A stretch of 64,000 nt of DNA. Source: Laetmonice hystrix. Its lineage: Eukaryota. This document shows positions 1,824 through 60,969 of the stretch, piece by piece. How positions within the stretch are numbered: the stretch's first letter is position 1; each line of letters begins with the position of its first letter. The stretch is from NCBI GenBank assembly GCA_965235115.1, contig OZ249436.1, positions 13,518,001-13,582,000 on the forward strand, in the 5' to 3' direction. A program made the position numbers and the translations under genes. The notes under the pieces are model-generated. The model did no database searches. It was not told the origin of the DNA and saw only the letters and a list, made by a program, of their open reading frames with translations.

Positions 1824-2077
1824 GTTGGGTGGGGATTGATCTACACTTAGGCCTAGAAGCAGATGGATTTCGGATAGGCCTACTTTGCGCCCCCGAGAGT
1901 CCGACAAACCAGACAAACACTCCTCGAGATAATTCAACTTTCAAGCCACAGCAATACACAGTCACAGGTCACGCATGTCTGAGACGAGGACGGTTACTGG
2001 GTAATAGGTCTACAGCCTGACATTATCTTTGATGTCACATGATTTACAACAGGGCTTCGGGCAGACCTGTAGCATCC

Positions 2078-3090
2078 ACCTCGATGTCATCATGCAGACC
2101 TGTAGCTGTATTAAAGGTTATCAACCTCTATGTCATCATGCAGACCTGTAGCTGTCTTAAAGGTTATCAACCTCGATGTCATCATGCAGACCTGTAGCTG
2201 TCTTAAAGGTTATCAACCTCTATGTCATCATGCAGACCTGTAGCTGTCTTAAAGGTTATCAACCTCGATGTCATCATGCAGACCTGTAGCTGTCTTAAAG
2301 GTTATCAACCTCTATGTCATCATGCAGACCTGTAGCTGTCTTAAAGGTTATCAACCTCTATGTCATCATGCAGACCTGTAGCTGTCTTAAAGGTTATCAA
2401 CCTCGATGTCATCATGCAGACCTGTAACTGTCTTAAAGGTTATCGACCTCGATGTCAGCATGCAGACCTGTAACTGTCTTAAAGGTTATCAACCTCGATG
2501 TCATCATGCAGACCAGTAGCTGTCTTAAAGGTTATCAACCCCGATGTCATCATGCAGACCTGTAGCTGTCTTAAAGGTTATCAACCTCGATGTCATCATG
2601 CAGACCTGTAGCTGTATTAAAGGTTATCAACCTCGATGTCATCATGCAGACCTGTAGCTGTCTTAAAGGTTATCAACCTCTATGTCATCATGCAGACCTG
2701 TAACTGTCTTAAAGGTTATCAACCTCTATGTCATCATGCAGACCTGTAGCTGTCTTAAAGGTTATCAACCTCGATGTCATCATGCAGACCTGTAGCTGTA
2801 TTAAAGGTTATCAACCTCGATGTCATCATGCAGACCTGTAGCTGTCTTAAAGGTCATCAACCTCGATGTCATCATGGACCTGTAGCTGTCTTAAAGGTTA
2901 TCAACCTCGATGTCATCATGGACCTGTAGCTGTCTTAAAGGTTATCAACCTCGATGTCATCATGGACCTGTAGCTGTCTTAAAGGTTATCAACCTCGATG
3001 TCATCATGCAGACCTGTAGCTATCAACCTCGATGTCATCATGCAGACCTGTAACTGTCTAAAAGGTTATCAACCTCGATGTCATCATGCA
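2078..3090. repeat. Minisatellite, 46-bp unit, ~22 copies
   Basis: Unit cctcgatgtcatcatgcagacctgtagctgtcttaaaggttatcaa repeated with few substitutions. Some 3' copies carry a 3-bp deletion. Confidence 0.97.
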
Positions 3091-3328
3091 GTGAAAACGA
3101 GTTCCAATGTTCTCGACAATGATTAGATGTTAGTGACAATATTAATTGTTAATTGATGGTGATATGACTTATGTGTGAACCTGCTGAAATAAATTATTTG
3201 ACATAGTGCGGAGAAGATGTATGCACATGTAGTTCCACAAGGTCACTCTTCCCATTGAACACCGCGACATCCTTTACTTTTTATTTTTAATAGGTCATAT
3301 TCACCAATCTTGTATAAAAACGCGTTAG

Positions 3329-5690: not shown

Positions 5691-6060
5691 ATATCAACTG
5701 CTTTTCATGATGCACTGTTGTTCGTATCATTATCCTGGCCCTTTCATATCGACTGCTTTTCATGATGCACTGTTCGTATATATCATTATCCTGACCCTTT
5801 CATATCGACTGCTTTTCATGACGCACTGTTCGTATCATTATCCTGGCCCTTTCATATCGACTGCTTTTCACGATGCACTGTTCGTATCTTTATCCTGGCC
5901 CTTTCATATCGACTGCTTTTCATGATGCACTGTTCGTATCATTATCCTGGCCCTTTCATATCGACTGCTTTTCATGATGCACTGTTCGTATCATTATCCT
6001 GGCCCTTTCATATCGCCTGTTTTTCATGATGCACTGTTCGTATCATTATCCTGGCCCTTT
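5691..6060. repeat. Minisatellite, 52-bp unit, ~7 copies, overlapping the CCDC154-like stop codon
   Basis: Unit tatcgactgcttttcatgatgcactgttcgtatcattatcctggccctttca. Its reverse complement encodes KGQDNDTNSAS*. Confidence 0.95.
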
Positions 6061-9000
6061 CCGTGGCCCTTGTCTTTGTTCGGACTGTCCTTGTCCTTGT
6101 TGGTGTTTGCCTCAATGACAGTGTCTGGGCGTCCCGTTTGAGGAGATGACCCAACCTGACCTTGACGTACCCGTAACGGGGGTGGCGGTTTAGGGAGTGC
6201 CGATCCTTCTTTATACTCCTTCAGCCACTTGGGATAGAACAGTCGCTGCTTCACTGTCAGCCACCTTCAAGGCGCAATAAACGGCATTTACCAATATATT
6301 CATGTGAGGTACACATAAATGTATTTATTTATTATAGCAAGTGCAAGTACTTTAATGGGACGCTGTGATTATGACATAATAGTATGTACTTTGTTTGATT
6401 AGATCTGTTCCTTCCGAAAATACGTTACACATGAGTCGGTCTTTGGGGCCATTTTCCTTTCAGATCTGCATGGTGTTAGAAATGTCAATTCATGTTCTAT
6501 TCATGAGTCCAAGTCGATGATAACAACTGTTTCAAAGGCCACATCTAATTTGGTCTAGGAACATTTTAACCTTGCTACATCTTAAATAACTTTTGAACTT
6601 GCTCAACTGCGTGTATTAGACATTATTTCTGAACACCAATACAAGACCCAGTTAGTATAATATTAACCTAAACTATACAAAAACGACAACAAAACAATAG
6701 TGCAAGAACACATAGATCTATCCACTTAAATAGCTCGTGATGTTAAAATGTTTGCCACTGTAAGTAAATTGTAGGCAGTGGCGTATCGGGGTGGGGGGTG
6801 GATTCCAAGTCTCCCGGACCCCCCCCCCCCCCCCCCCCGTTGAAAGAAGTATAGTAAGGACATTTTTGTAAACCAGGAGTGTAAAAATGCATTACTTTAA
6901 CCAAAGGAAATCTTCATATTTCCACACAAGATGTCTGGAGAATTTTCCAGAGGAGCATGGCCTAAGTACATGAAGTACATGAACTCCGGAAACCCCCGTT
7001 AACAAATTTCTGGATACGCCACTGATATGTGTGCACTCGTGGTACATACGGTATAAGATTTTATAGCGTAGAGAACGAAGTTCTGTTTTCTTCCAATAAA
7101 CTGTATTCTGGAAGCAGCTCTGACCAGGCCCTGTTATACCGCTCACTGTCACAGATTGGGGGGGGGGGGGGGGGGGGGGGGGCCAAATCCTACCTGTAGG
7201 CAGCATATACACTCCATCGGTTGAGGGGCACTGCTTTTTTCTCACCCTCCTCTCTAGTTTCTTGTCTGCTATCCTTAATGAATATTCGGGGCCCTGCGTG
7301 AGTCTTGAGTAATGGCTCGAGTAGCGCCCTCAATCGAATGACCTCGTCCTGAAGGTTTTTAACCTCTTCGATACGCTACATGTGAACAATTAAAGACATC
7401 AAGTGAAACAGCATGATGACTTAAACTTTCTCCGTAAGCGTTCATACACAGCCCTCAACCGCAAAGGTCAATCTGTGCTCTTCCTTTCCACTACTGTGAC
7501 TTAGTAAAATATACTAGCACTGTGTAACAAAGCAGAGTTTCCAAATTCCAAGTTTGGTGTTTCGTGGGGTCAAAGGCCAGCATGAAGACGAGAATAAAAC
7601 ACCATTATAGTGAGGAGTGCCTGTAATGAAATGTGAGAAAATACCCGCCTGTAATGCACGTTTCTAAGGCCAAAAAAAAAATAGATTCGTTTCTTGTCCC
7701 CGCGCGCGTCACCTAAAAACCCCCGCGTCAAGTCTTTTTTTTTCAAATCCAACTGCTTCATATGGTGGGCAGTGTAGCGCTGTGACAGAACGTTGCAACG
7801 GTTCTTTGGCGTTGGCGTTTTTCTGTTAGTCTTGTTGATTTTATGCGAGTTTTACACATTCTAAAACATTGAACATCATTGCATTAGTCTTTTCTTCAAG
7901 ATTTATGTACCCAACAGCAATTGCATTCGAAGAATCGGCCGTTGTCTAGTTTCATCCAAAAAAAAAAAGAAAGATGAAAAAAAAAAAAAACGCGTCACCG
8001 CACCAATTTTTTTATATGAAAGGACAAGAAACGAAACTTTTTTTTTTTGGCCTAATATGAAGTGGGAAAAGAAAGCCTGAAGAATGTGAAATAGAAAACT
8101 TATTAAAACACATATTAAGGTGCAGTGTGATAAGAGTAACAGCGAGAGTGCGGTAAGTATGCAGCCATCCTGAGTGGATATTGGTTAATAATATACACGC
8201 TGAAAACAAAACAAATTGTGTGAATCAGTCGAGGTATTATAGGTCCGGCACTGCAGGTATAACACCTGCCTTCAGTCTCAACATTCATCTTGAGGTGGTG
8301 GGATCTTCACTATTCCCTCGACGTCGTCGTGTCCTCACGGGCAGGACCACCATCCTCCTGATCTTTGTCCTTCTTAGAACTTGGAGCTTCGTCTTTGCTA
8401 TCTGTATCCTTCTCCACGTCTGCATCGGCATCCTTGTCTTCATCTTCCTTCTTAGTGTCTTCTGTTTTCTCTTCATCCTGTTTTGTCTTACTTCCAGCTT
8501 GGCCAGCATCATCAGCGTCATCATCGTCATCATCTGAACCGTCTTGCTCGTGTGAAGCGTTGCCATTGTTGTTGTTTGTGTTAGCGTCATCCGTTGTTTG
8601 TTCATCGTTTACGCCATGCTCACTGTGAGCACGTAAACCATCCACCTGTTCCTGAATCTCACGCTGGAACGTTTCTCTCTGATATAATAACACAAGGATA
8701 GCATTATTCGTTCATTCTGTGGTGACATGATGTGTCAGCAATGTAAATGTTCTATCGAGGGAAACCTTGGAAGAACACTTTTGATGAGATGAGTGTTCTG
8801 GACTGCAAAGTTTGGCGGACAATATGTCAAAACATATTTGGTCGAAGACCATAGTTGTAAACGAATTACACTAAGACTGCCTTTAAAAGATCTACATACT
8901 AAATGTGCTGATTAGGAACAATATAGGATTGGGCACTACCACCTGGGTCGAAAAGTGGATCAATATATCTATCTGAAGACAGTATATCCTGCTTGAAATT

Positions 9001-12000
9001 AGGAAGTCCACAATACACCCGTACACCTAGTTAGGTATGAACTCACCAGTTTCTGTTCCGACTGTATCTTCATACCAAGTACCGTTTTAACGGTCTGTAT
9101 CGACTCAGCCAGCTTCCGGATACTGCTCTGGATCTGCAAACAGACAATCTTCTGCAAAACGGTACGCAGTCTGAGATAATTACGACAATCTCGCAATTGA
9201 TCTAATATTAACCTTTTTACAGTTTCGACGCTCACTGATGGGTACGTCCATATCGGTTATAATAATACAACAGTAAAATCTTACGTTCTCTAGTTCTTCA
9301 TCATCGACACCCTTCTGATCATTTCTATCTCCAATCTTCATTGAGAGATCCTCCATTTCTCTCTTCAGGCCCTCAAGGTCCCGACCCCGGACCTCAGACT
9401 CTGCCGACACTCTCTGCTTGATCTCAGCCTTCATCAGTTTCTGCCGCTCCTCTGCCTGATAGGACTGCACCACATAAACACCTTATATAATGATACTCCG
9501 TGTCACTCGTTACAACTAAAAATAGTGAAATAACATTGGTTTTAGGCTCTAAATCATTTGGGCAATCATTCGTTCTGTAACTGAACGTTTGCATCGTGGA
9601 CTTCTATTCCACTTAGCAAGAGACAAACTACACTTAGCAAGCTCGACATTAACAATACTACTAAGCGCCACCTGGTGTCGATGGTGGAAGTACAGCCAGA
9701 TTAGGCCCCGACATATCTATCTACCAGGTAGGTCACCATCAGTGTTATAACCTGTCACCTTCTCCACACACACACCTGTCTTGAAAACGTAAAATGATCT
9801 CTTGAAACTCTAGACTTTAAACATTGTCTAAATGCTACAAACGATCGTATGAGAATTCAGTGAAATAATTTCCATTCTTGATTTTTCACCTGTGCTTTAG
9901 CATAAGGAATACCGCTGCTTTACGGCAAAGCAGTATACAGCACCTTTTTCATGAAACCTTTAATTTATTCTGAAGTGATGGATGATTTTTGTACGGAGGG
10001 AATGACTGCTCAGATTTCAGCACTTAGTTTAGTCTGAATTTCTTAAATTAACTCACATCTTCAGTTGCGAGCTGCACCTGGGTCTGGATCTCCTTGAGTG
10101 CCTGCTGAGTGACCTCTTGCCACAAGGAGATGGATTCAACTTTCTCTCTTAGGTTCTGGGATTGGACGACCGCAGCCTTGAACAGGATGGGGACAACCTC
10201 TTAATACTTATAAAACAGTTATGTACAGCTCTCAACACACTGTTTTTGTAGTTTTAATTAGTTTCACAATATACAGAGTTACTGTACACCTTGAAAAGTT
10301 CGTATGCAGGAAATGTTCACATAATTGGTCAGGGACGTAAATCTCAGGAGAAATAGGAAAATGATTAAAATGGAAATTTCACAAAAATTACACGCCACCA
10401 AAATTTCATGGTTTACAGTAATGCAAATCCCACTCATGCACGCACAAAGAAGATTAACAACGATGACACCATGCAAACAATATGGTATACATATGTCACG
10501 GACGAGATCGGAATTCCAATCTGGGCCGGCCCAAAATGGGATTCCGATCTCGGCCGGCCCAGTTCGGAATCGGGCCGGCCGAGATTGGAATTCCATTCTA
10601 GGCCGGCCTGGAATGGAATCGACATAGGATTCCATTCTGGGCCGGCCCAGATCAGAATTCTGATTCTGGCCGGCCAAGATGGGAATCCTCTAAAGACCTG
10701 GCCCAGATTGGAATTCTGATCTGGGCCGGCCCATGAACAACACCACAGTTTTCAGACTCACACTGCGCTTTGAAGGGGGGCTTCAAAGGGAACCCTACGC
10801 TGTTTAGAGCCTGGGAACTTAGGTATAGTAAACATACATTCTGGTAGGTATGAAGGAATATAATTCCGAATATTAGGCCTATCACAGTCCTAAACTGGTT
10901 TCACTAGTCTATATAGGTACCTTTAATTTCTAAAAGTGTATTTTTAAACTAAAACTCTGCCGAGATCAGAAAAACATCCATTCTGTCATTCGAGGATTCC
11001 TATATATGTGATTAAAGTGGATATACTGACTTTATAATTCCAGATGGATTCTGATCTGGGCCGGCCCAGATCAGAATTCCAATCTGGGCCAGGTCTTTAG
11101 AGGATTCCCATCTTGGCCGGCCAGAAATCAGAATTCTGATCTGGGCCGGCCCCGAATGGAATAGTGGAATCCTATGTCAATTCCATTCCAGGCCGGCCTA
11201 GAATGGAATTCCAATCTCGGCCGGCCCGATTCCGAACTTGGCCGGCCCAGTTCGGAATCCCATTCTAGGCCGGCCTGAAATAGAATTCCAATCTCGGCCG
11301 GCCCGATTCCGAACTGGGCCGGCCGAGATCGGAATCCCATTCTGGGCCGGCCCAGATTGGAATTCCGATCTGGGCTGGCCCAGTTCGGAATCGGGCCGGA
11401 TTCCAATCTCGTCCGTGACACATACATGTACATGTCTGACGGTTACATACACAACCTGATATCACGCCAAGGAGAACAATCTCTTCGCCAACAGGCGATG
11501 TTGTACGTCAGCGACACATAATGTTGTATTCATGCAAATTATGTTGAATGGAGTAAATCCAAGATTAAGCATTTCTTTAAGGACATCTGTGAATTCTAGC
11601 ACGTAAATAAAAACAAGTTTAGCCCCCGAAGAGGGTGCTATAGAGACGTGTTCATCATGCACTGACAGAAAGCTTGGGGACATAGAGCGGACATAAAGAT
11701 GGGAGCAAGGTGTACCTCCGGGTCGGTAAAGGTCTCCTGCCGCCCCTGCAACGCCTGCTCCCAACAGACAAGGAGCGATCTTACGACATTGGGTTTTTAT
11801 GCAGGAAAAGGACCCGTATGTCACACCCTTTTGTAGCCACATAGTGTACTAGTTCCCCCTTGCTTAGAATTTGTCTCTACACAAGAAAGATGTACCATAA
11901 TTCATAAATAAAGCAAAGGTTAATTACTGGTGTACATCATGCAAAGATTGGATTATTCAAAAGAACGGATTTCTAAAGACTACGGTTGGAATATTCTACA

Positions 12001-22068: not shown

Positions 22069-25000
22069 TGGGCAATTCCATGGTTATGGACGTACATTTC
22101 AGACACTTTGATTGCATACATAGGGGTCCCTAATATAATAAGGCAGAATGTTTTATAGCCATCACCTAGCTTATATCTAGTTCTACTGATTCTACTTTGT
22201 TTAGCTTTTTATTATCAGTTTTTTTTCGAAATTATGTAAAAAATGGTGTGGTTATGGACGTTCGCGCACGATTTGACTTTTTCAACTGATTTGGAATACC
22301 ATGCAAACTCTGTGAAGTGTGGTACAAAATAAAAATGAAACTAATTTATACTAACAGGCCTAGGGTTTCCCTTTGGGAATATGAATGAAATTCATTGCTA
22401 TCCTCAAAACGGGAAATGTGACATATAGAAAACGTAAGGTTATGGACGTACAATTTTTGGTTATGGACGTACACGTGCGAAAGTTATGGACGTACATTCT
22501 ATGAAAATTATTTGAAAACCATAAAAAAATTAAAAACACATATACTTTCAGAAACCTACAACTTCATTTATCCAATTTATTTCTAAATTTAAAAAATAAT
22601 AAATTGAAATACATAAATCAGGGCCCAGTGAACAAACATATGAGAACCCTCTTTTTTTAACATGTAAGATTTCTATCAGAATTAAAGCATTAGCATTATT
22701 AATCTTTACTGTGATGTTTCTTTACGTCTTCAAATTTCTTTTGTATCTCATCAAGATTTGCCACAGTAAATGGACCTGGTTCTCAGGGTTGGGAGATCCA
22801 TTTATGATGGTTTCAGAGTGATAAAGACTGCAATTCAAGATGGCGTCCAAGATGGCCGCCATACCTTAAAGTCTCCATAATGTCGTCAATTTTTATTGAA
22901 TTTTCATGTGCAATACCTCGTTTCTATGGTTTTCAGGGTCGGGGAATCCATTTATGATGGTTTCAGAGTGATAAAGACTGCAATTCAAGATGGCATCCAA
23001 GATGGCCACCATATATTATGAAGTCTCCATAATGTCGTAAATTTCCATTTCATTTTTATGTGTAATGGCCTTGTTTTTGTGGTTTTCAGGGTTGTGGAAT
23101 CTATTTATGATGGTTTCAAAGTGATATGATGTGCTTTATACCATGTAAAACAAACATACATAGCCTAAGTACAAATTACTACGTTCGACTTTGACTTGAA
23201 TCAGTTATAGTCCTGTGACAAAAGCGGCCCACCTAAAATCTTTGAGGGAATCCCGGAACAAGTGTACTCTTGCTTGTCTGTGGTATAGATGGCTTGCTCT
23301 CTCGCTCAATCACTCATTCACTCACCCTGCCTCAGTCACTCAATCACCTACTCATGCATGATGTAGTATACTAGTAGTGGAATATTGTTTGTCTGTGGTG
23401 TTGGCTTCTATGAACTGGTGATGGTATTGGCATTGCAAGTGTGTGAACCAAGATGACTAGCCAGACAGGAAAGAGAGTTGTTGAAGGAGTTGTGTCATTG
23501 GAGTGACTAAAGAAAAGGCGAGAGGATCCACTGACTACATTGACTACAAGAAGTGTGTCATTTGCCAGGCAGAATCACCCAAGGGACTTGTACATGTTAC
23601 ATCAGTAACAAAGCTTATGCGGCCATGACTGCTCGGCAGGATAAACAGAAAACTGCAGAAGCACATAGCAAACGACACGTGGATCACAGACAAATCCCCC
23701 AAATGGCATGCCAAATGCAGGAACCTCTACCTCAATGAAAAGAGCTATATATATACTGACAGAAAGAAAGCGTCTTGGAACACCAGATAAGGCTGATCAA
23801 CCCTCAAACAGTACACTTCCCAGGTCACCTATTGCCACCACAAGATTCGAAGCTTTGTTACTGATGTAACATGTACAAGTCCCTTTTGTGATTCTGCCTG
23901 GCAAATGACAACTTCTTGTAGTCAACAGTCAGTGGATCCTCTTGCGTTGTCTTTGGTCGCTCCAATAACACAACTCCTTCAACAACTCTCTTCCCTGTCT
24001 GGCTAGTCATCTTGGTTCACACACCTGCAATATGTCAATACCATCACCAGTTCTTAGAAGCCAACACCACAGACAAGCAATATTCCACTATACTACATGC
24101 GTGAGTAAGTGATTGAGTGACTGAGGCAGGGTGAGTGATTGAGTGAGAGAGCAAGCCATCTATACCACAGACAAGCAAGAGTACACTTAATCCAGGATTC
24201 CCCCAAAGATTTTAGGTGGGCCGTTTTTGTCACGGGACTATAACTGATTCAAGTCAAAGTCGAACGTAGTAATTGGTATCGCTCTGAAACCATCATAAAT
24301 GGATTCCCTGACTCTGAGAACCATAGAAACGAGGTATTACACATGAAAATGAAATGAAAATTGACGACGTTATGGAGATTTCATGATATATGGCAGCCAT
24401 CTTGGACACCATCTTGAATTGCATTCTTTATCACTCTGAAACCATCATAAATGGATTCCCCGACCCTGAAAACCATAGAAACGAGGTATTGCACATGAAA
24501 ATTCAATAAAAATTGACGACATTATGGAGAGTTTAAGATATGGTGGCCATCTTGGACGCCATCTTGAATTGCGGAGTTACAGTAGCTTGTTGCAAAGGTT
24601 GTCCACCTAGAAATTATTACTGAGGGTCTAAGGAATCCAACCATATACAACAACCTTCTACAGCAGACTGTGTCTGTTTTCACAAAAAAAGCGTGGCTGG
24701 CCCCCTGGGTAGTTATGGACGTACAGGGTTATGGACGTACATTAAATTTGTACGTCCAAAACCAGCAAAAGAGCTACTAAAATAAGACCAAATAAGAAAC
24801 GATTTCTTATGTATGCTAAGAAGTAATAGTTTACTTTGTATGGCAAATACGATTTTATTTGGAAAACATCATGCTTAAAAAAAAAAAAAAAAATTAATTT
24901 TGGTTATGGACGTACATGGGCGATAAGGGTCTAAAAATAGATTTCTATTTACCTAAAACAAGAAGAACCATAAGAAAACTAAATTCACCTGAAGGTAGGC

Positions 25001-27699: not shown

Positions 27700-28859
27700 T
27701 ATCCCGACGTCCGTGCTGCTAAGTGACCAGTCCTGACATTGTATATTGTTATAGTAGGCCTGCTAGGCCTATATATTGTAGGCCTCCCGTCGCTGCGCTC
27801 GCCCTCTAGGTAGCACCTACATCATATTAGGCTTCAGCAATACCGGTATGCATCAAGGTATGCTATCGACGATGTCACAACTTCACAAGTAAAGTGGCTA
27901 AAGTGGCTTAGAGTCTAGTTTAAGTTAGTGAACATTAGGCCTACTGAATACTGTCATGACTGTGTTACTGCTGACGTGTGTTAGTGTCACTGTTAGGTCT
28001 ACTGTTAAGTGTTATGCTCTAGATCTATTGCGTCAAGACACAGAGGAGATAGTCATAGAGAAATTAACGTTGTCCCTCTCGATATTGCTCTAAATTAAAA
28101 AGTACGCAGTTTAAGTTATATAAGTTCAATGCAAAAGTTAAAATGTAACATTTACCGCCTCTCGAAGTACTGCTCCGACATTATTATTGTTTACATGGTA
28201 TCGAAGGAATAACTAGGATTTTCGCGCGAGTACCAAGTTATTTGAGTCCCAATATTTTGGTCACACTCCCGATAAAAAATTGGAAAGTTTCAATGATTGA
28301 GTACCAGTAAAATTAAATGGTGAATCCTTTAAAATATTAACAGCCGAGATAGAGAAAATGTGATATATGCTAAAATGACAAGATTAGATAGATCTATAAC
28401 GCGTCCGAGAACTGCAGTCTCGTCGAAACATCAACGGGGCAAGATGTAGGTCCCGGGATAATAATTCAACCAAAATATAGGCAAGTCGTTGGTAGTTCGA
28501 AAGTTGATGGTGCGAATAATTTATTATAATGTTAAAAAAATTTAATAATTATAGTACATAAATTATAGCCCGAAATCTTCGAGCATTCTCGTTAATATTT
28601 TCAATTAATGTGGCCTATTTAGCTAAATATTGACGTGACACCTTAATCAGTGTAACATTGACGTCTTTCACTTTCAGGGGATTTTCATTTCTTTGCTGTT
28701 CTGAGGACCAAAAACTACAGAAAGCGGCATGTAAGCAGTATATGGATAGAATCAACTCTTTCTTTTCCTTTTATTGTAAATCAGTTGATAATCAAAGTAA
28801 GCCTATCGTATTATAGGGGCCGTACCAAGCCCAAACCAAGGTCCAAGCTGTCCAACTCC

Positions 28860-29596
28860 TACTCCAACAAGTCAGAGTCCTAGTCCTTACGTCCATACGG
28901 ACTCTGACCGTCGAGTACAAATGCGCCAGCGACTGCTATGCTGCCGGGGTTCTATCTCGGTCCTATCGCGCATGATCGCCTCAAAGTCATGTTTCAGACC
29001 ACTTTTGGCACTGAAACTTGCTGAGAGTACACAAAAGAGGTTACTTCAACAGATACGTAGATGTATTTTGTTGGATGTTATCTTAGTAGGTGAAATTCTC
29101 AGCTTGTTTGGTCAAATTCAGCGCAGCGCGGGTGACGAGCGGTGACCCAGTTTATCGGGTGTGCGTATTTTCGACTCCTACAGTTGATCCGAAACGGACC
29201 GCATAAGTAGGTCGCGCTCTGTTCAAGCAGACGCTGACGGCACAGAGTGAAGCTACGCGTTTCGGGTACCAGTAGCGATCTAACTTTTATCAGTTCCCGG
29301 TCACTCGGTGCACCGCAGATGGCTGACGGAGCTACGGACCCGACATGCTCCTAAACAACCGGACCGTGTGGACGTTATATTTGTCCAATAATTATAATCA
29401 AGGTCGGAATAGAAATTTCAATACCGTGGCTCTCTATAAAAATCGATTTCATACTCCGTGGATGAAGTTTAGTACCAAAACGAAGGCCGCAAAGTTGCGA
29501 TAACGGACCTCTTCGCAGAGCGTCCGAGAGTCGCTAGGCCAGCGTCACTCAACAACTAAACGGTGTTCTGGAAGACACCGTTTAGAAACTGAACTA
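28860..29596. mobile_element. Non-autonomous element 'B', copy 1: TA termini, subterminal hairpins, 9-bp TSD
   Basis: TCCAACTCC at 28851-28859 and 29597-29605. 5' hairpin gtcagagtcc/ggactctgac, 3' hairpin ctaaacggtgt/acaccgtttag. Homologous copy at 30515-32327. Confidence 0.85.
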
Positions 29597-29672
29597 TCCA
29601 ACTCCAAGCGGCGGTCTCGCTCGAAATCGGCCGCCGCTCGAAATCCTACGGACGAGCGGGCGTAGCACGCAG

Positions 29673-30427
29673 GGGTAACACGACATGTCCGCCCGTAGCC
29701 ATGTCCGCCCGGTCATATCCGCCCCCGGGATGTAGGCCCGAGCCCCGGTCATGTCCCCCTGGCTTCATCATGTCCGGTGTCGCGGTCTGTTTTCTCCGCG
29801 GTCTGAAATCTCCGGGAGATTAGCTGCAGAGTCGTGTGTATTTGTATCGTTCTCGGTAAACTATCCGAAATATCAGGTCAGGATGGAGTCTCACGTAATA
29901 ACCCTTTTCTTCTCCGTCAGTTTTGGTCCACAATTTGCCTATCCAGGCTGTCGTTTATTATTTTTTGGAAGAAAAATCCATTGCCCATCAGCTAGCAGAC
30001 GACCGGAGGTGTGAGCCCAAACTGTGACACGCGCGTGCTCACTTGGTCAGGTTCGGCCTCTAAACAATAGGAAACCAGTCACTCGGAGATTGCAGACCTG
30101 CGGAGAAAACAGACTGCGACACCGGCCCTCGCTGCTCCGCTCAAGAGGCGCCCAGCAAGGGACACGTTACCTACGAGGTGGCTGTCATTTGTTGGGCACT
30201 TAGCGATTACAATAGTTGATTTAGAGTTGTTGATACACTCCTCTAACTCAGTAGACTGTCCTAGTAGTCACGTTGACGGCTTTTCCCGGGACCTCCACGG
30301 GCGGCAGGGTGGGCAGAGTCGAGTGTCTATCACAGAGTGACAGAGGCACGGCGGGCGGGAGGGCATAGTACCGAGGGGCGGACATGACCGGGCGGACATG
30401 GCGACGGGCGGACATGTCGTGTATTCC
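29673..30427. mobile_element. Nested TIR element 'E' (CATGTCCGCCC subterminal repeats)
   Basis: acacgacatgtccgcccg...catgtccgcccggtcat / atgaccgggcggacatg...cgggcggacatgtcgtgt. (C)ACGCAG(G) direct repeat on both flanks. Confidence 0.8.
29774..30125. mobile_element. Nested MITE 'F' inside E
   Basis: ccggtgtcgcggtctgttttctccgc / gcggagaaaacagactgcgacaccgg TIR. A related solo end lies at 32678-32712. Confidence 0.7.
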
Positions 30428-30557
30428 ACGCAGGCAGCTCCGCCGGCGTAGCTGCCCGCGGAACTAAACCACCACTAACCCTAGGCCTAACCTAAACCTT
30501 AACCCTACTAACACTACTCCAACAAGTCAGAGTCCTAGGCCATACAGACTCTGAGTT

Positions 30558-31306
30558 GAGTTACAGTCAGAACGTCCACGAGTCAGAACGTCTACGGTGC
30601 CACCGAGTCAGAACGTCCATGCAACATGGTCAGAACGTCCATACTACTTTGCAACTCACACATCGACATTTCCTTTCTGCCAATGTCATTGAATGTGCCT
30701 TTTGGGGGGCCCTGGCCTAGATGATAGTCGTAACTATTACCGTACTAGATTTGCTGGTAGCTAAGCGGTGGGTCTTTTTCACGAAACCGAGCGTTGAAGT
30801 TTAACACATCTCTGAGTAGGGTACTGGCGTAGCCTAATGCGTTTCGGGTCGCCACAGGCCTCGACCAACTGTTATGTCCAGTAAAGATGATCAAACTCAA
30901 CAACTCCCCCAAAACCAACCAACCTATTCACCCTCATGTGCCTCTGTATCATTAAAGTTTACCCCGTTGCCGACTGATGGGTCTGACATGGCCGCTAGCT
31001 GTCTGGGGTGCTGAAGGGAAGAGAGAAAAGTAACGCTCGGTTTCGTGAAAAAGACCTAGATCTACCTCCTTTTGACTGCTACAAAGTACAACTACAAGTC
31101 TAGATGGACTATACCCTATACTATATATATGGGCCCCATAATATAGTTCCTAAACTTCTTTTGAAACCAACTCCAATGTACGTGCTTGGACTGTGGTTGT
31201 GAGCCAAAAGCATGTACGTTGTGACCCGAAAGCGTGTACGTTGTGACCATTTTTAGACGTTGTGGCTCATGGATGTTGTGACTGGTGGACGTTCTGACTG
31301 GGACCC
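30558..31306. mobile_element. Nested MULE/MuDR-like MITE 'C' (9-bp TSD)
   Basis: TIR core cagtcagaacgtccac / gtggacgttctgactg. CTCTGAGTT duplicated at 30549-30557 and 31307-31315. G..C termini. Confidence 0.85.
30771..31056. mobile_element. Nested MITE 'D' inside C
   Basis: Perfect 25-bp TIR ggtctttttcacgaaaccgagcgtt / aacgctcggtttcgtgaaaaagacc. TSD unclear. Confidence 0.7.
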
Positions 31307-31314
31307 CTCTGAGT

Positions 31315-31636
31315 TAGCCTACGTAGTAAGCCTTGCCACGCTAGCAAGGCTTACAGGCAGTCAATGTAAATTCCTTGCGGGTCATGATTACACACCTGCC
31401 ACACCACCACCGCTTGCACTGATCAACTCACCGCATCCATTTATCTCGACAGTAGGTGCGACAAGTCCTGAAGCAGTGTTTCTAAAAGTACAATGTCAAA
31501 TTTAAAATTCATGTCTAGATTATCGTCTACCAGCTGCCATTTTGCCTTTGATATCCCAGCATGCATCTCTCTGCTCGGAAATCCTGAACAGCGACCTTCG
31601 GCTCTGTACAGAGCACAGAGCCGAATTCTTTGGCTA
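31315..31636. mobile_element. Element 'G': TAGCC...GGCTA, subterminal hairpins, 9-bp TSD
   Basis: Absent from B copy 1. TSD actctgagt (30548-30556, displaced by C) / actttgagt (31637-31645). Hairpins gtaagccttgc/gcaaggcttac and ttcggctctgt/acagagccgaa. Confidence 0.75.
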
Positions 31637-32489
31637 ACTTTGAGTCTGACCGTCGAGTACAAATACACCAGCGACTGCTATCCTGCCGGGGTTCTATCTT
31701 GGTCCTATCGCGCATCATCGCCTCAAAGTCATGTTTCAAACCACTTTTGGTACTAAAACTTGCTGTGAGTACACAAAAGAGGTTACTTCAACAGATACGT
31801 AAATGTATTTTGTTGGATGTTATCTTAGTAGGTGAAATTCTCAGTTTGTTTGGTCAAATTCAGTGCAGCGCAGGCAACGAGCGGTGACCCAGTTTATCGG
31901 GTGTGCATATTTCCAACCTCTATAGTGGATCCGGAACGGACCACATAAGTAGGTCGCGCTACCTGGCACTGACAGCACAGAGTGAAGCAACCCGTTTCGG
32001 GTACTAATCCTGAGCGATCTAACTTTTGTCAGTTCCCGGTCACTCGGTGCACTGCAGATGGCTTACGGAGCCTACGGACCCGATTTGCTCGTAATCAACC
32101 AGACCGTGTGGACATTATATTTGCCCAATAATTACGATCAAGGTCAGAATAGCCAATCTATCACCTCTGCTCTCTGAAAATATCGATTTCATGCTCTGTG
32201 GAAGAAGTTTAGTGCCAAAACGAAGGCCGCAAAGTTGTGATAACGGACCTCTTCGCAAGAATCGCTGGGCAACCGTCACTTGACAACTAAACGGTGTTCT
32301 GGAAGACACCGTTTAGAAACTGAACTATACTAACACTAACCCTAGGCCTAACCTAAACCTTAACCCTACTAACACTAACCCTAGGCCTAACCTTAACCTT
32401 AACCAGTACGGCCGCCCCTAACATACGCGCGACCGATTTCGAGCGGCGGCCGATTTCGATAGACACCGTCCAAGGCAACCCCTGAGCCA

Positions 32490-59173: not shown

Positions 59174-59777
59174 CCTGACCATACTGTAGGATACAGAGGT
59201 CACTGATAACCCTAACCATACTGTAGGATACAGAGGTCACTGATAACCCTGACCATACTGTAGGATACAGAGGTCACTGATAACCCTAACCATACTGTAG
59301 GATACAGAGGTCACTGATAACCCTGACCATACTGTAGAATACAGAGGTCACTGATAACCCTGACCATAACTGTGGGATACAGAGGTCACTGATAACCCTG
59401 ACCATACTGCAGGATACAGAGGTCACTGATAACCCTGACCATACTGCAGGATACAGAGGTCACTGATAACCCTGACCATACTGCAGGATACAGAGGTCAC
59501 TAATAACCCTGACCATACTGCAGGATACAGAGGTCACTAATAACCCTGACCATACTGCAGGATACAGAGGTCACTGATAACCCTGACCATACTGTAGGAT
59601 ACAGAGGTCACTGATAACCCTGACTATAACTGTGGGATACAGAGGTCACTGATAACCCTGACCATACTGTGAGTGTGGGATACAGAGGTCACTGATAACC
59701 CTGACCATACTGTAGGATACAGAGGTCACTGATAACCCTGACCATACTGTAAAATACAGAGGTCACTGATAACCCTA
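59174..59777. repeat. Minisatellite, 37-bp unit, ~16 copies
   Basis: Unit tgaccatactgtaggatacagaggtcactgataaccc. Confidence 0.97.
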
Positions 59778-60969
59778 CCCACTATTTGATCCTATCATTC
59801 GACCAGCGAGGACCATTAATCTACACCTCTAGGTGGCGCTGCAGGCAGTTTGCTCGATCGTGCAGAGACAATGTTTATTGTCGAGTTACCTCAGGGGACG
59901 GCCGAGCCACCTTGCTGCCTCCTTCACGCTCCTGTATCATAACCCCCCCCCCCCCCCAGCATCCCTGTACACGTATTTCATGAGTGAAGATTAAAGTTTG
60001 AATGATCTCTTAGTGCTGGGACGTATGTGAGGTAGGCTAAACAGCAGCAATGATAGGGCACATCTCTAAGGCGTGTTTTTATAACGGTTAGGCCGCCTGA
60101 TCCCATCTCCATTTAATTGTAAAATATCTCAGAGATCTGATCGTATTGTACAGAAAAAGGTCACAGTAGTACATGTATTTAGTGTAGGAATGGTCGGTGC
60201 GCCGTATCACTTAGGCCCTTTAAAAAGAAGCAGTTTTTTCCCTGATGTTCCAGTGACTGACCGATTTGAAACTTAGCCAGGTTAAGAGAAGAAATGCAGA
60301 CATCGTTTTTAAGTAGGACGTTGTTGAGGCGAAGTGGCAACTTTTCATAGCGACATTTTCCCCATAAGACGTGTATAAGTCTGAAATGTACAAATCGAGT
60401 CATCGAAAATGTAATGTAATGTAATCTGTGATGAGAAATCTGAATATAGAATGAGAGCCGGATGCAAATACAGATGAAAGAATTTATTGGTCTTCACGTC
60501 CTATGGGTACTCCTAGCATTAGAAATCTCAGCGACATCGTCAATACTTTTACACGACTAGTCCATTATGCAAAGCCGTATGAACAGTTGGCGAAGGTAGA
60601 AAATGCTGCATCATTTACAACGACTGGAGACAGTCTGGGTAGAAGTAGAGATTATAATTTTGTAAAGAATGGCAATCACGAATGTGAAGAGGTTTAGTAA
60701 ATGTGACTGACTAAATATGCACTTTGGAGGTAAATTTGGTAACATAATGTAAGGGGTTTGCTGTGTAGTGATACAGCTGATTGCCTCTGTGGCCTGGGGG
60801 ACGTTTAGAGGTTAGTTGGCTGCCAGCACTTAAATTCAAGGTAAATTAGCTACTGTTAAACTTTGATAGGTCTGATATTGTTCCCGGTCCATAGCCTTTC
60901 ATTTAAAGATTTTGGGTTAGGTTAGGATAGTGTTGTCGATGCGGCGCCAGCGGGTAGAGATGGGATGGC

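Follow-up and report, generated by a model that had tools for sequence, protein, structure and literature searches.

AcademH elements, a group of the Academ superfamily reportedly described by Kojima in 2020, have YR..YR termini and very short terminal inverted repeats (TIRs). A passage of PMC10045372 gives them a target site duplication (TSD) of 9-10 bp, and they are also treated in an excerpt of PMC10799480. Here, we analyse a 64,000-nt stretch of the Laetmonice hystrix genome (assembly GCA_965235115.1, contig OZ249436.1, positions 13,518,001 to 13,582,000 of the forward strand; hereafter, the window) in which two transposons, B (two copies) and G, combine TA..TA termini and almost no TIR with a stem-loop 11 nt inside each end. 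Both are confirmed as real non-autonomous DNA transposons. Very short derivatives of these families, found by genome-wide searches, never retain a whole terminal hairpin. We conclude that the end plan is a real feature, probably of a known superfamily, and that these derivatives give a new and testable clue to the cleavage mechanism.

Other transposons share parts of this plan. Mutator-like elements (MULEs) without TIRs exist, and the termini of MuDR typically start with G. An excerpt of PMC3627910 describes 9-bp TSDs as typical of MuDR; it gives Helitron2 asymmetric TIRs of 8-15 bp, a 5′ hairpin in which the terminus is included and a TSD that is either absent or variable (7-19 bp), and it states that the HUH transposases of IS200/IS605 recognise hairpins and leave no TSD. 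The P element, in a passage of PMC7776569, has 31-bp TIRs and an 8-bp TSD, and its non-transferred strand is cut 17 bp inside. IS3EU/GingerRoot elements show TA..TA termini with a 6-bp TSD (same passage of PMC10045372), and DNA9TA1 is named in a part of PMC9341505 that does not give its structure. The literature searched, which did not extend to the AcademH paper, its supplements or Repbase, contains no account of Academ end hairpins, footprints or capped short derivatives, nor of Academ excision and the role of its helicase; the B/G end plan may already be recorded in the AcademH paper or in Repbase.

Families with hairpins at a fixed distance from their ends

Genome-wide searches were done in the 627-Mb, 35-contig assembly that holds the window. 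The initial annotation had taken the two B copies, flanked by different exact 9-bp TSDs, as independent insertions, and the flanks are indeed as it gave them; since the TSD of copy 2 lies inside a tandem repeat, it is weaker evidence taken alone. Copy 1 has 40 scored genome matches at 97-100% identity, and copy 2 is 87% identical to it across 703 bp. Among the 30 fetched B loci, the top matches of 798 candidates, the 9-bp TSD is exact in all 29 full-end copies; for G (30 loci of 358), it is exact in 19 of 25. TSDs are richer in GC than their flanks (0.57 for B and 0.56 for G vs 0.44-0.45) and have no fixed consensus. End patterns match the genome 435 times for the B left end (B2 included), 333 times for the B right end and 473 times for the G-type left end, and reversed patterns give no match. 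As had been proposed, the ends are barely inverted in B, where the perfect TIR is 2 bp and 5 of the first 11 nt match (5 bp and 8 of 11 in G), and the two elements, which show no similarity at E<0.01, follow the same plan.

Further families share it. B2 (751 bp, 80 left-hairpin matches) has only ~20 terminal nt in common with B, and its TSD is exact in the one full copy read; G2 (~580-590 bp) carries the left terminus of G and a different right stem; and G3 comprises longer G-ended forms of 519-607 bp. The four stems of B and G are present as first written, and in all eight ends folded the stem begins 11 nt from the terminus, with stems of 10-14 bp, loops of 5-18 nt and folding z-scores of -3.1 to -7.3 against dinucleotide shuffles. 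Within the G group, the loop varies from 5 to 10 nt and the arms are unchanged. Comparison of subfamilies by eye, rather than by a phylogenetic test, gave seven compensated stem changes (two between B and B2 left, two each between G and G2 left and right, one between G and G3a left) against one uncompensated. Perfect stems of at least 9 bp occur at the two ends of 29/29 and 28/29 B copies and of 21/25 and 17/25 G copies. In 27 B copies of equal length, 0 of 42 stem columns vary vs 71 of 620 interior columns (p = 0.017), which is weak support because the copies are young top matches. A de novo scan for the plan in 355 kb of DNA returned, besides families of the B and G types, just one locus of tandem repeats and one unconfirmed pair.

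The idea that hairpin structure and position are recognised instead of TIR sequence holds in its first half: constant offset, compensated changes, loop variability and the deletion caps described below all indicate that position and structure matter. Its second half has no such support: the left terminal 11 nt are identical in B and B2, and likewise in G, G2 and G3; because they are conserved between related families, the terminal sequence probably also counts.

The 11-nt offset is not absolute, because a few copies have their TSD at a shifted terminus (L034:1501, L058:1840, L089, L081), the left end being 5 nt shorter at a second TA or the right end carrying 1-2 extra nt or a truncation. Self-insertion in or near the end hairpins is frequent (window 30548-31645, L015, L075, L076, L046), with G in the left stem of B, an insertion with a 9-bp TSD in the B left loop, a short B derivative within another B end, and tandem copies of B and of G. 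Promoter-like motifs on both strands in mid-B2 (L114) and a similar motif in G2 suggest remnants of the promoters of parent genes. Just inside the B right hairpin, window positions 29545-29555 resemble the left terminal 11-mer of B in direct orientation; neither G nor B2 has such a likeness, and it may be due to chance.

Short derivatives stop at the inner arm of both hairpins

Gapped patterns joining both termini of a family retrieved very short derivatives (minis), with no match in reversed controls throughout. The 62 independent junctions, of 33-90 bp, keep both termini, the outer arm and the loop and usually have a TSD. The whole inner arm is retained in none of them, and both ends stop short in all 62. 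The B scan, which covered 32-122 bp and 131-191 bp, gave 27 matches of up to 62 bp and a further 12 of 63-122 bp, corresponding to 33 junctions, all of 75 bp or less save one 90-bp copy enlarged by tandem filler; at 131-191 bp there was one copy, of 181 bp, with both hairpins intact. B2 contributed 16 matches, or 13 junctions, at 36-90 bp and none at 94-153 bp; G-type minis numbered 13 at 39-61 bp and none at 63-122 bp; and G2 gave five matches, four of them clear, one of these counted before. An 88-bp G2 match was removed from the counts, its inner sequence being unrelated. The next ~60 bp of length above the minis is nearly empty.

The longest retained end, with the lengths of unfetched minis (most lengths) read by eye from listings, tracks the start of the inner arm across the eight ends (longest retained/inner-arm start: 42/40, 34/31, 35/32, 32/30, 45/42, 46/42, 27/27 and 23/32; r = 0.88, p = 0.004), lying 0-4 nt beyond it in seven of the eight. 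Right ends longer than 34 nt are found in 5 of 13 B2 minis vs 0 of 33 B minis (p = 0.0009); the equivalent comparison of left ends did not reach significance (p = 0.10). Mini formation needs both ends to be processed together and is capped at the edge between loop and inner arm. This points to the hairpin setting the site of second-strand opening or of the halt in repair, and not necessarily to transposase binding.

The TSD is exact in 14 of the 23 B minis fetched and in 6 of 6 G minis, plus one G2 mini. Junctions are unique and show microhomology and filler, and one-sided loop deletions and longer deletions occur too (L075, L078). One G mini joint, from 31336 to 31612, was present in contigs from sequencing runs. 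In the three repeated mini forms examined (5, 2 and 4 copies), flanks are common to the copies, and these minis are thus carried by another repeat. On this ground, a 41-bp hairpin-less mini with five copies was rejected as a mobile form, as were the 51-bp and 77-bp forms; a pair of 75-bp minis 30 kb apart lay outside the comparison. None of the hairpin-less junctions recurred at a second target site, and hairpin-bearing forms number hundreds. Because the repeated minis examined share flanks, hairpin-less forms look immobile.

A proposed hairpin-set cut of the second strand

Strand transfer of the DDE type, staggered and at the terminal TA, is implied by the constant 9-bp TSD. We propose, at close to but somewhat below even confidence, that B, B2, G, G2 and G3 are cut-and-paste DDE elements in which the hairpin sets the second-strand cut, and that minis are the scars left at the donor. 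The transposase would nick the transferred strand at the terminal TA, and the element end would be unwound, the AcademH RecQ-like helicase being a candidate for this step. Unwinding would let the non-transferred strand fold into the stem-loop, and this strand would be cut 27-46 nt inside, at the loop's 3′ edge or immediately beyond it. The element would then depart with long 3′ single-stranded ends and insert with a 9-bp stagger, and the donor would retain two 3′ tails made of terminus, outer arm and loop. Trimming of these tails and their joining by microhomology-mediated end joining would yield a TSD-flanked mini, unable to move again because the inner arms have been lost. Such a scheme would amount to the 17-nt stagger of the P element made longer and defined by structure; since P is cut 17 bp inside, its donor would by inference also keep end sequence.

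Minis have, however, another possible origin, aborted gap repair, which is the established source of internally deleted Ds and P elements. Excision could be flush or with a short stagger, after which synthesis starting at both ends of the donor would copy the element on the sister and disengage within the hairpins, the tails then being joined; the hairpins would serve end recognition or unwinding and the cap would be a by-product of repair. The intact TSDs, unique junctions, microhomology and filler are what gap repair predicts, and the one-sided and longer deletions as well as the broad spread of retained lengths fit it. Nevertheless, a hairpin in the template should arrest synthesis where the stem begins on its outer side (~nt 12) and not at the loop/inner-arm edge, all 62 junctions are short at both ends, and only one copy, that of 181 bp, passed the hairpin in the ranges scanned. 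Gap repair accounts for most of these facts, and we regard it as the main competitor, though rather less likely than not. If it were correct, hairpins would still be shown to act in vivo, in a less remarkable way.

Several observations weigh against a hairpin-set cut. The putative cut sites are deduced from the end-points of minis, and retained lengths are broadly spread under the cap with no pile-up at it. At the right end of G2 (n = 4), the cap lies 9 nt below the line. The exact TSD is found in just 10 of 18 independent B mini sites (at least 8/9 in 15) and in only 1 of 5 independent B2 minis, and the amplified G3b subfamily has one unpaired position, uncompensated, in its left stem.

If minis are donor scars, the caps predict at which nucleotide the second strand is nicked, end by end and family by family. 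A wider suggestion, which we hold only tentatively, is that of a eukaryotic DDE pathway in which a helicase melts the ends and a hairpin, not a TIR, sets a cut 27-46 nt inside. If true, it would explain the RecQ-like helicase of AcademH, would fit the XPG-type nuclease encoded by the sister lineage AcademX, as an enzyme cutting the 3′ side of an opened loop, and would make minis a genomic record of the second-strand cut. An excerpt of PMC3488251 places XPG incision on the 3′ side of an opened bubble, the polarity that the proposed loop-edge cut would need; in the passage of PMC10045372, the AcademX enzyme is called just 'nuclease'.

Candidate mobilizer

Partner searches were aimed at DUF6589 transposases and RecQ-like helicases, none at MuDR transposases. 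PF20231 (DUF6589), a domain that we take to be linked to Academ transposases, has 39 matches in the genome, over a dozen of which lie beside convergent RecQ-like helicase open reading frames (ORFs); relatives occur in molluscs and hemichordates. A model of one DUF6589 transposase (predicted local distance difference test, pLDDT, 82.8) has a DDE fold whose closest structures, tied, are Hermes (Z 10.9, root-mean-square deviation 5.8, 291 aligned) and the P transposase (Z 10.6, 4.9, 293 aligned). Of the eight loci examined among 16 from metagenomes, only contig L130 has a helicase ORF besides DUF6589; ~940 bp upstream of this ORF, at L130:8547, lies a TAG end bearing, at offset 11, a stem of 11/13 bp. 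We consider it probable that B, B2, G, G2 and G3 are moved in trans by AcademH. The B/G families work like AcademH derivatives, and membership is likely, not demonstrated.

Other observations count against this. Long copies encoding a transposase or helicase, a search for which the initial annotation had suggested, did not turn up, and no B, B2 or G ends were found on an autonomous element. Of 195 exact B-left and 80 B2-left ends, none lies within ~30 kb of a DUF6589 match (39 in all) or a helicase match (30), distances being compared by eye, and the G-left comparison was limited to the first 100 of 473 positions. B/G families have no DNA or protein similarity to the autonomous loci examined, and the one genomic DUF6589 and helicase element whose boundary was mapped (L066:1787) lacks a hairpin at offset 11. 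The end in L130 has neither a second end nor a TSD, and one of its type is expected 0.43 times per shuffled 8.6 kb.

With this in mind, the mobilizer could be not AcademH but a MuDR/MULE that lacks TIRs, or a DDE family, so far undescribed, that makes 9-bp TSDs, a possibility that we judge rather improbable. The TA termini of B and G are not the G start of MuDR, AcademH-type pairs are abundant in this genome, and the L130 end, albeit weakly, has the same plan; these points have to be set against the absence of any AcademH partner of B/G among the elements found. The 9-bp TSDs would suit such a mobilizer, being typical of MuDR in the excerpt of PMC3627910.

Some candidates were discarded. The long B copies of L061 (7.9 kb) and L062 (5.6 kb), considered as autonomous partners, are B with a nested long interspersed nuclear element (LINE) and a nested Ty3/Gypsy element, and a stem at L064:9572, considered as an element end, looks like another repeat. 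Scans for TSD plus hairpin did not find the ends of the DUF6589 and helicase elements in L063, L064 and L065; for two twin families of this kind, the 2-kb stretches fetched showed nested MITEs (miniature inverted-repeat transposable elements) and did not reach the ends. A loose-end motif from sequencing reads had 0 matches. The element running from L066:1787 to L068 has a 100%-identical partial twin on C8, imperfect subterminal inverted repeats, no clear TSD and a C2H2-like insert in its transposase. The DUF6589 ORF at L065:3624-5711 has a cysteine-rich PHD-like insert, which we assume to be AcademHP-like, and no helicase ORF in the 10 kb fetched. At C13:9003310-9008026 and C10:20309951-20315065, matches to the transposase alternate with matches to the helicase on the opposite strand, as if the exons of each gene sat in the introns of the other.

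Remaining alternatives and relation to described transposons

Two further readings of the minis and hairpins fare worse. Minis could be made at the target, both ends being joined to the new site and the intermediate resolved at the hairpins so that no more than the outer ends arrive there; this, too, would produce unique minis flanked by a TSD and capped where the hairpins dictate, but positive evidence is absent and no end-to-end circle junction is among the joints listed from sequencing contigs, and we judge it improbable. A reading in which the inverted arms never fold and serve a dimeric transposase domain as double-stranded dyad sites is very improbable, for although palindromes too would have a fixed offset, conserved arms and paired changes, the spacers run from 5 to 18 nt (5 to 10 nt with the same arms in the G group), within one element the left arms bear no relation to the right ones, so that a single protein would have to bind two different dyads, and the deletion cap follows loop length.

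Among described systems, B and G resemble AcademH in that their 9-bp TSD (29/29 B, 19/25 G) lies within its 9-10 bp, TA..TA termini with a 2-5-bp perfect TIR fit its YR..YR ends and short TIR, and pairs of transposase and RecQ-like helicase occur in this genome. They differ in their fixed-offset end hairpins and capped minis, which we have not found described for AcademH, and in being tied to no autonomous partner, the one mapped genomic element being without a hairpin. With the P element they would share cut-and-paste movement and a non-transferred strand cut well inside, and the DUF6589 model has a likeness to the P and Hermes transposases; unlike P, they have neither a 31-bp TIR nor an 8-bp TSD, and instead of a fixed 17-nt stagger, theirs, as deduced from minis, would be 27-46 nt, vary between ends and follow the hairpin. 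Helitron2 also has hairpins at both ends with compensatory changes, whereas both hairpins of B and G are 11 nt inside, their TSD is a constant 9 bp and their end sequences, read directly, show neither the 8-15-bp asymmetric TIRs nor the terminal 5′ hairpin of Helitron2. IS200/IS605 likewise uses subterminal hairpins in place of TIRs, but with single-strand chemistry and no TSD, while the 9-bp TSD of B and G implies staggered DDE transfer. IS3EU/GingerRoot has the same TA..TA termini with a TSD of 6 bp rather than 9 bp, and MuDR/MULE the same 9-bp TSD; B and G show no long TIR of the MuDR kind, as would also hold for MULEs without TIRs. The plan itself (TA, 11 nt, stem-loop, 9-bp TSD) offers a rule for classing TIR-less non-autonomous repeats and helps to spot 33-90-bp scars that annotation overlooks.

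Organisation of the window

Table 1. Coordinates of B, G, F and their parts in the window
Feature	Position	Strand	Remark
Left 9-bp TSD, B copy 1	28851..28859	+	identical to 29597-29605
B copy 1, 737-bp non-autonomous DNA transposon, TA..TA ends	28860..29596	+	
B left stem-loop, 10-bp stem, 18-nt loop, 11 nt inside	28871..28908	+	fold z -3.09
B right stem-loop, 11-bp stem, 8-nt loop, 11 nt from terminus	29556..29585	+	z -3.42
Right 9-bp TSD, B copy 1	29597..29605	+	identical to left TSD
Left 9-bp TSD, B copy 2, within tandem repeat	30506..30514	+	identical to 32328-32336
B copy 2, left hairpin interrupted by G and F	30515..32327	+	87% identical to copy 1
Displaced left TSD of G	30548..30556	+	8/9 match with 31637-31645
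Element F, TIR MITE unrelated to B/G, across left junction of G	30558..31306	.	
G, 322-bp non-autonomous DNA transposon, 5-bp TIR	31315..31636	+	
G left stem-loop, 11-bp stem, 7-nt loop, 11 nt inside	31326..31354	+	z -5.19; subfamily alignment
G right stem-loop, 11-bp stem, 7-nt loop, 11 nt from terminus	31597..31625	+	z -3.08
Right TSD of G	31637..31645	+	
B copy 2 right stem-loop, intact	32287..32316	+	
Right 9-bp TSD, B copy 2	32328..32336	+	

The 8/9 TSD first assigned to G is real and not adjacent to the element: the immediate flanks agree at 7/9, and the left duplicate has been displaced by F. This window copy of F has ~20-bp TIRs with a G start, a 9-bp TSD (30549-30557 / 31307-31315) and no end hairpins of the B/G plan. 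It also has subterminal repeats and an inner 25-bp inverted repeat (30771-30795 / 31032-31056), and as a whole it is MuDR-like.

No long coding ORF is present in the window. The host of B copy 2 is a larger MITE (29612-32468) with 34-nt inverted arms and a telomere-like tandem repeat, and nested inside it is a further MITE with 62-nt arms (29678-30422). Tandem arrays with units of 92, 52 and 74 bp and foldback repeats occupy window positions 2074-3091, 5691-6061, 59174-59781, 10499-11415 and 22777-24572.

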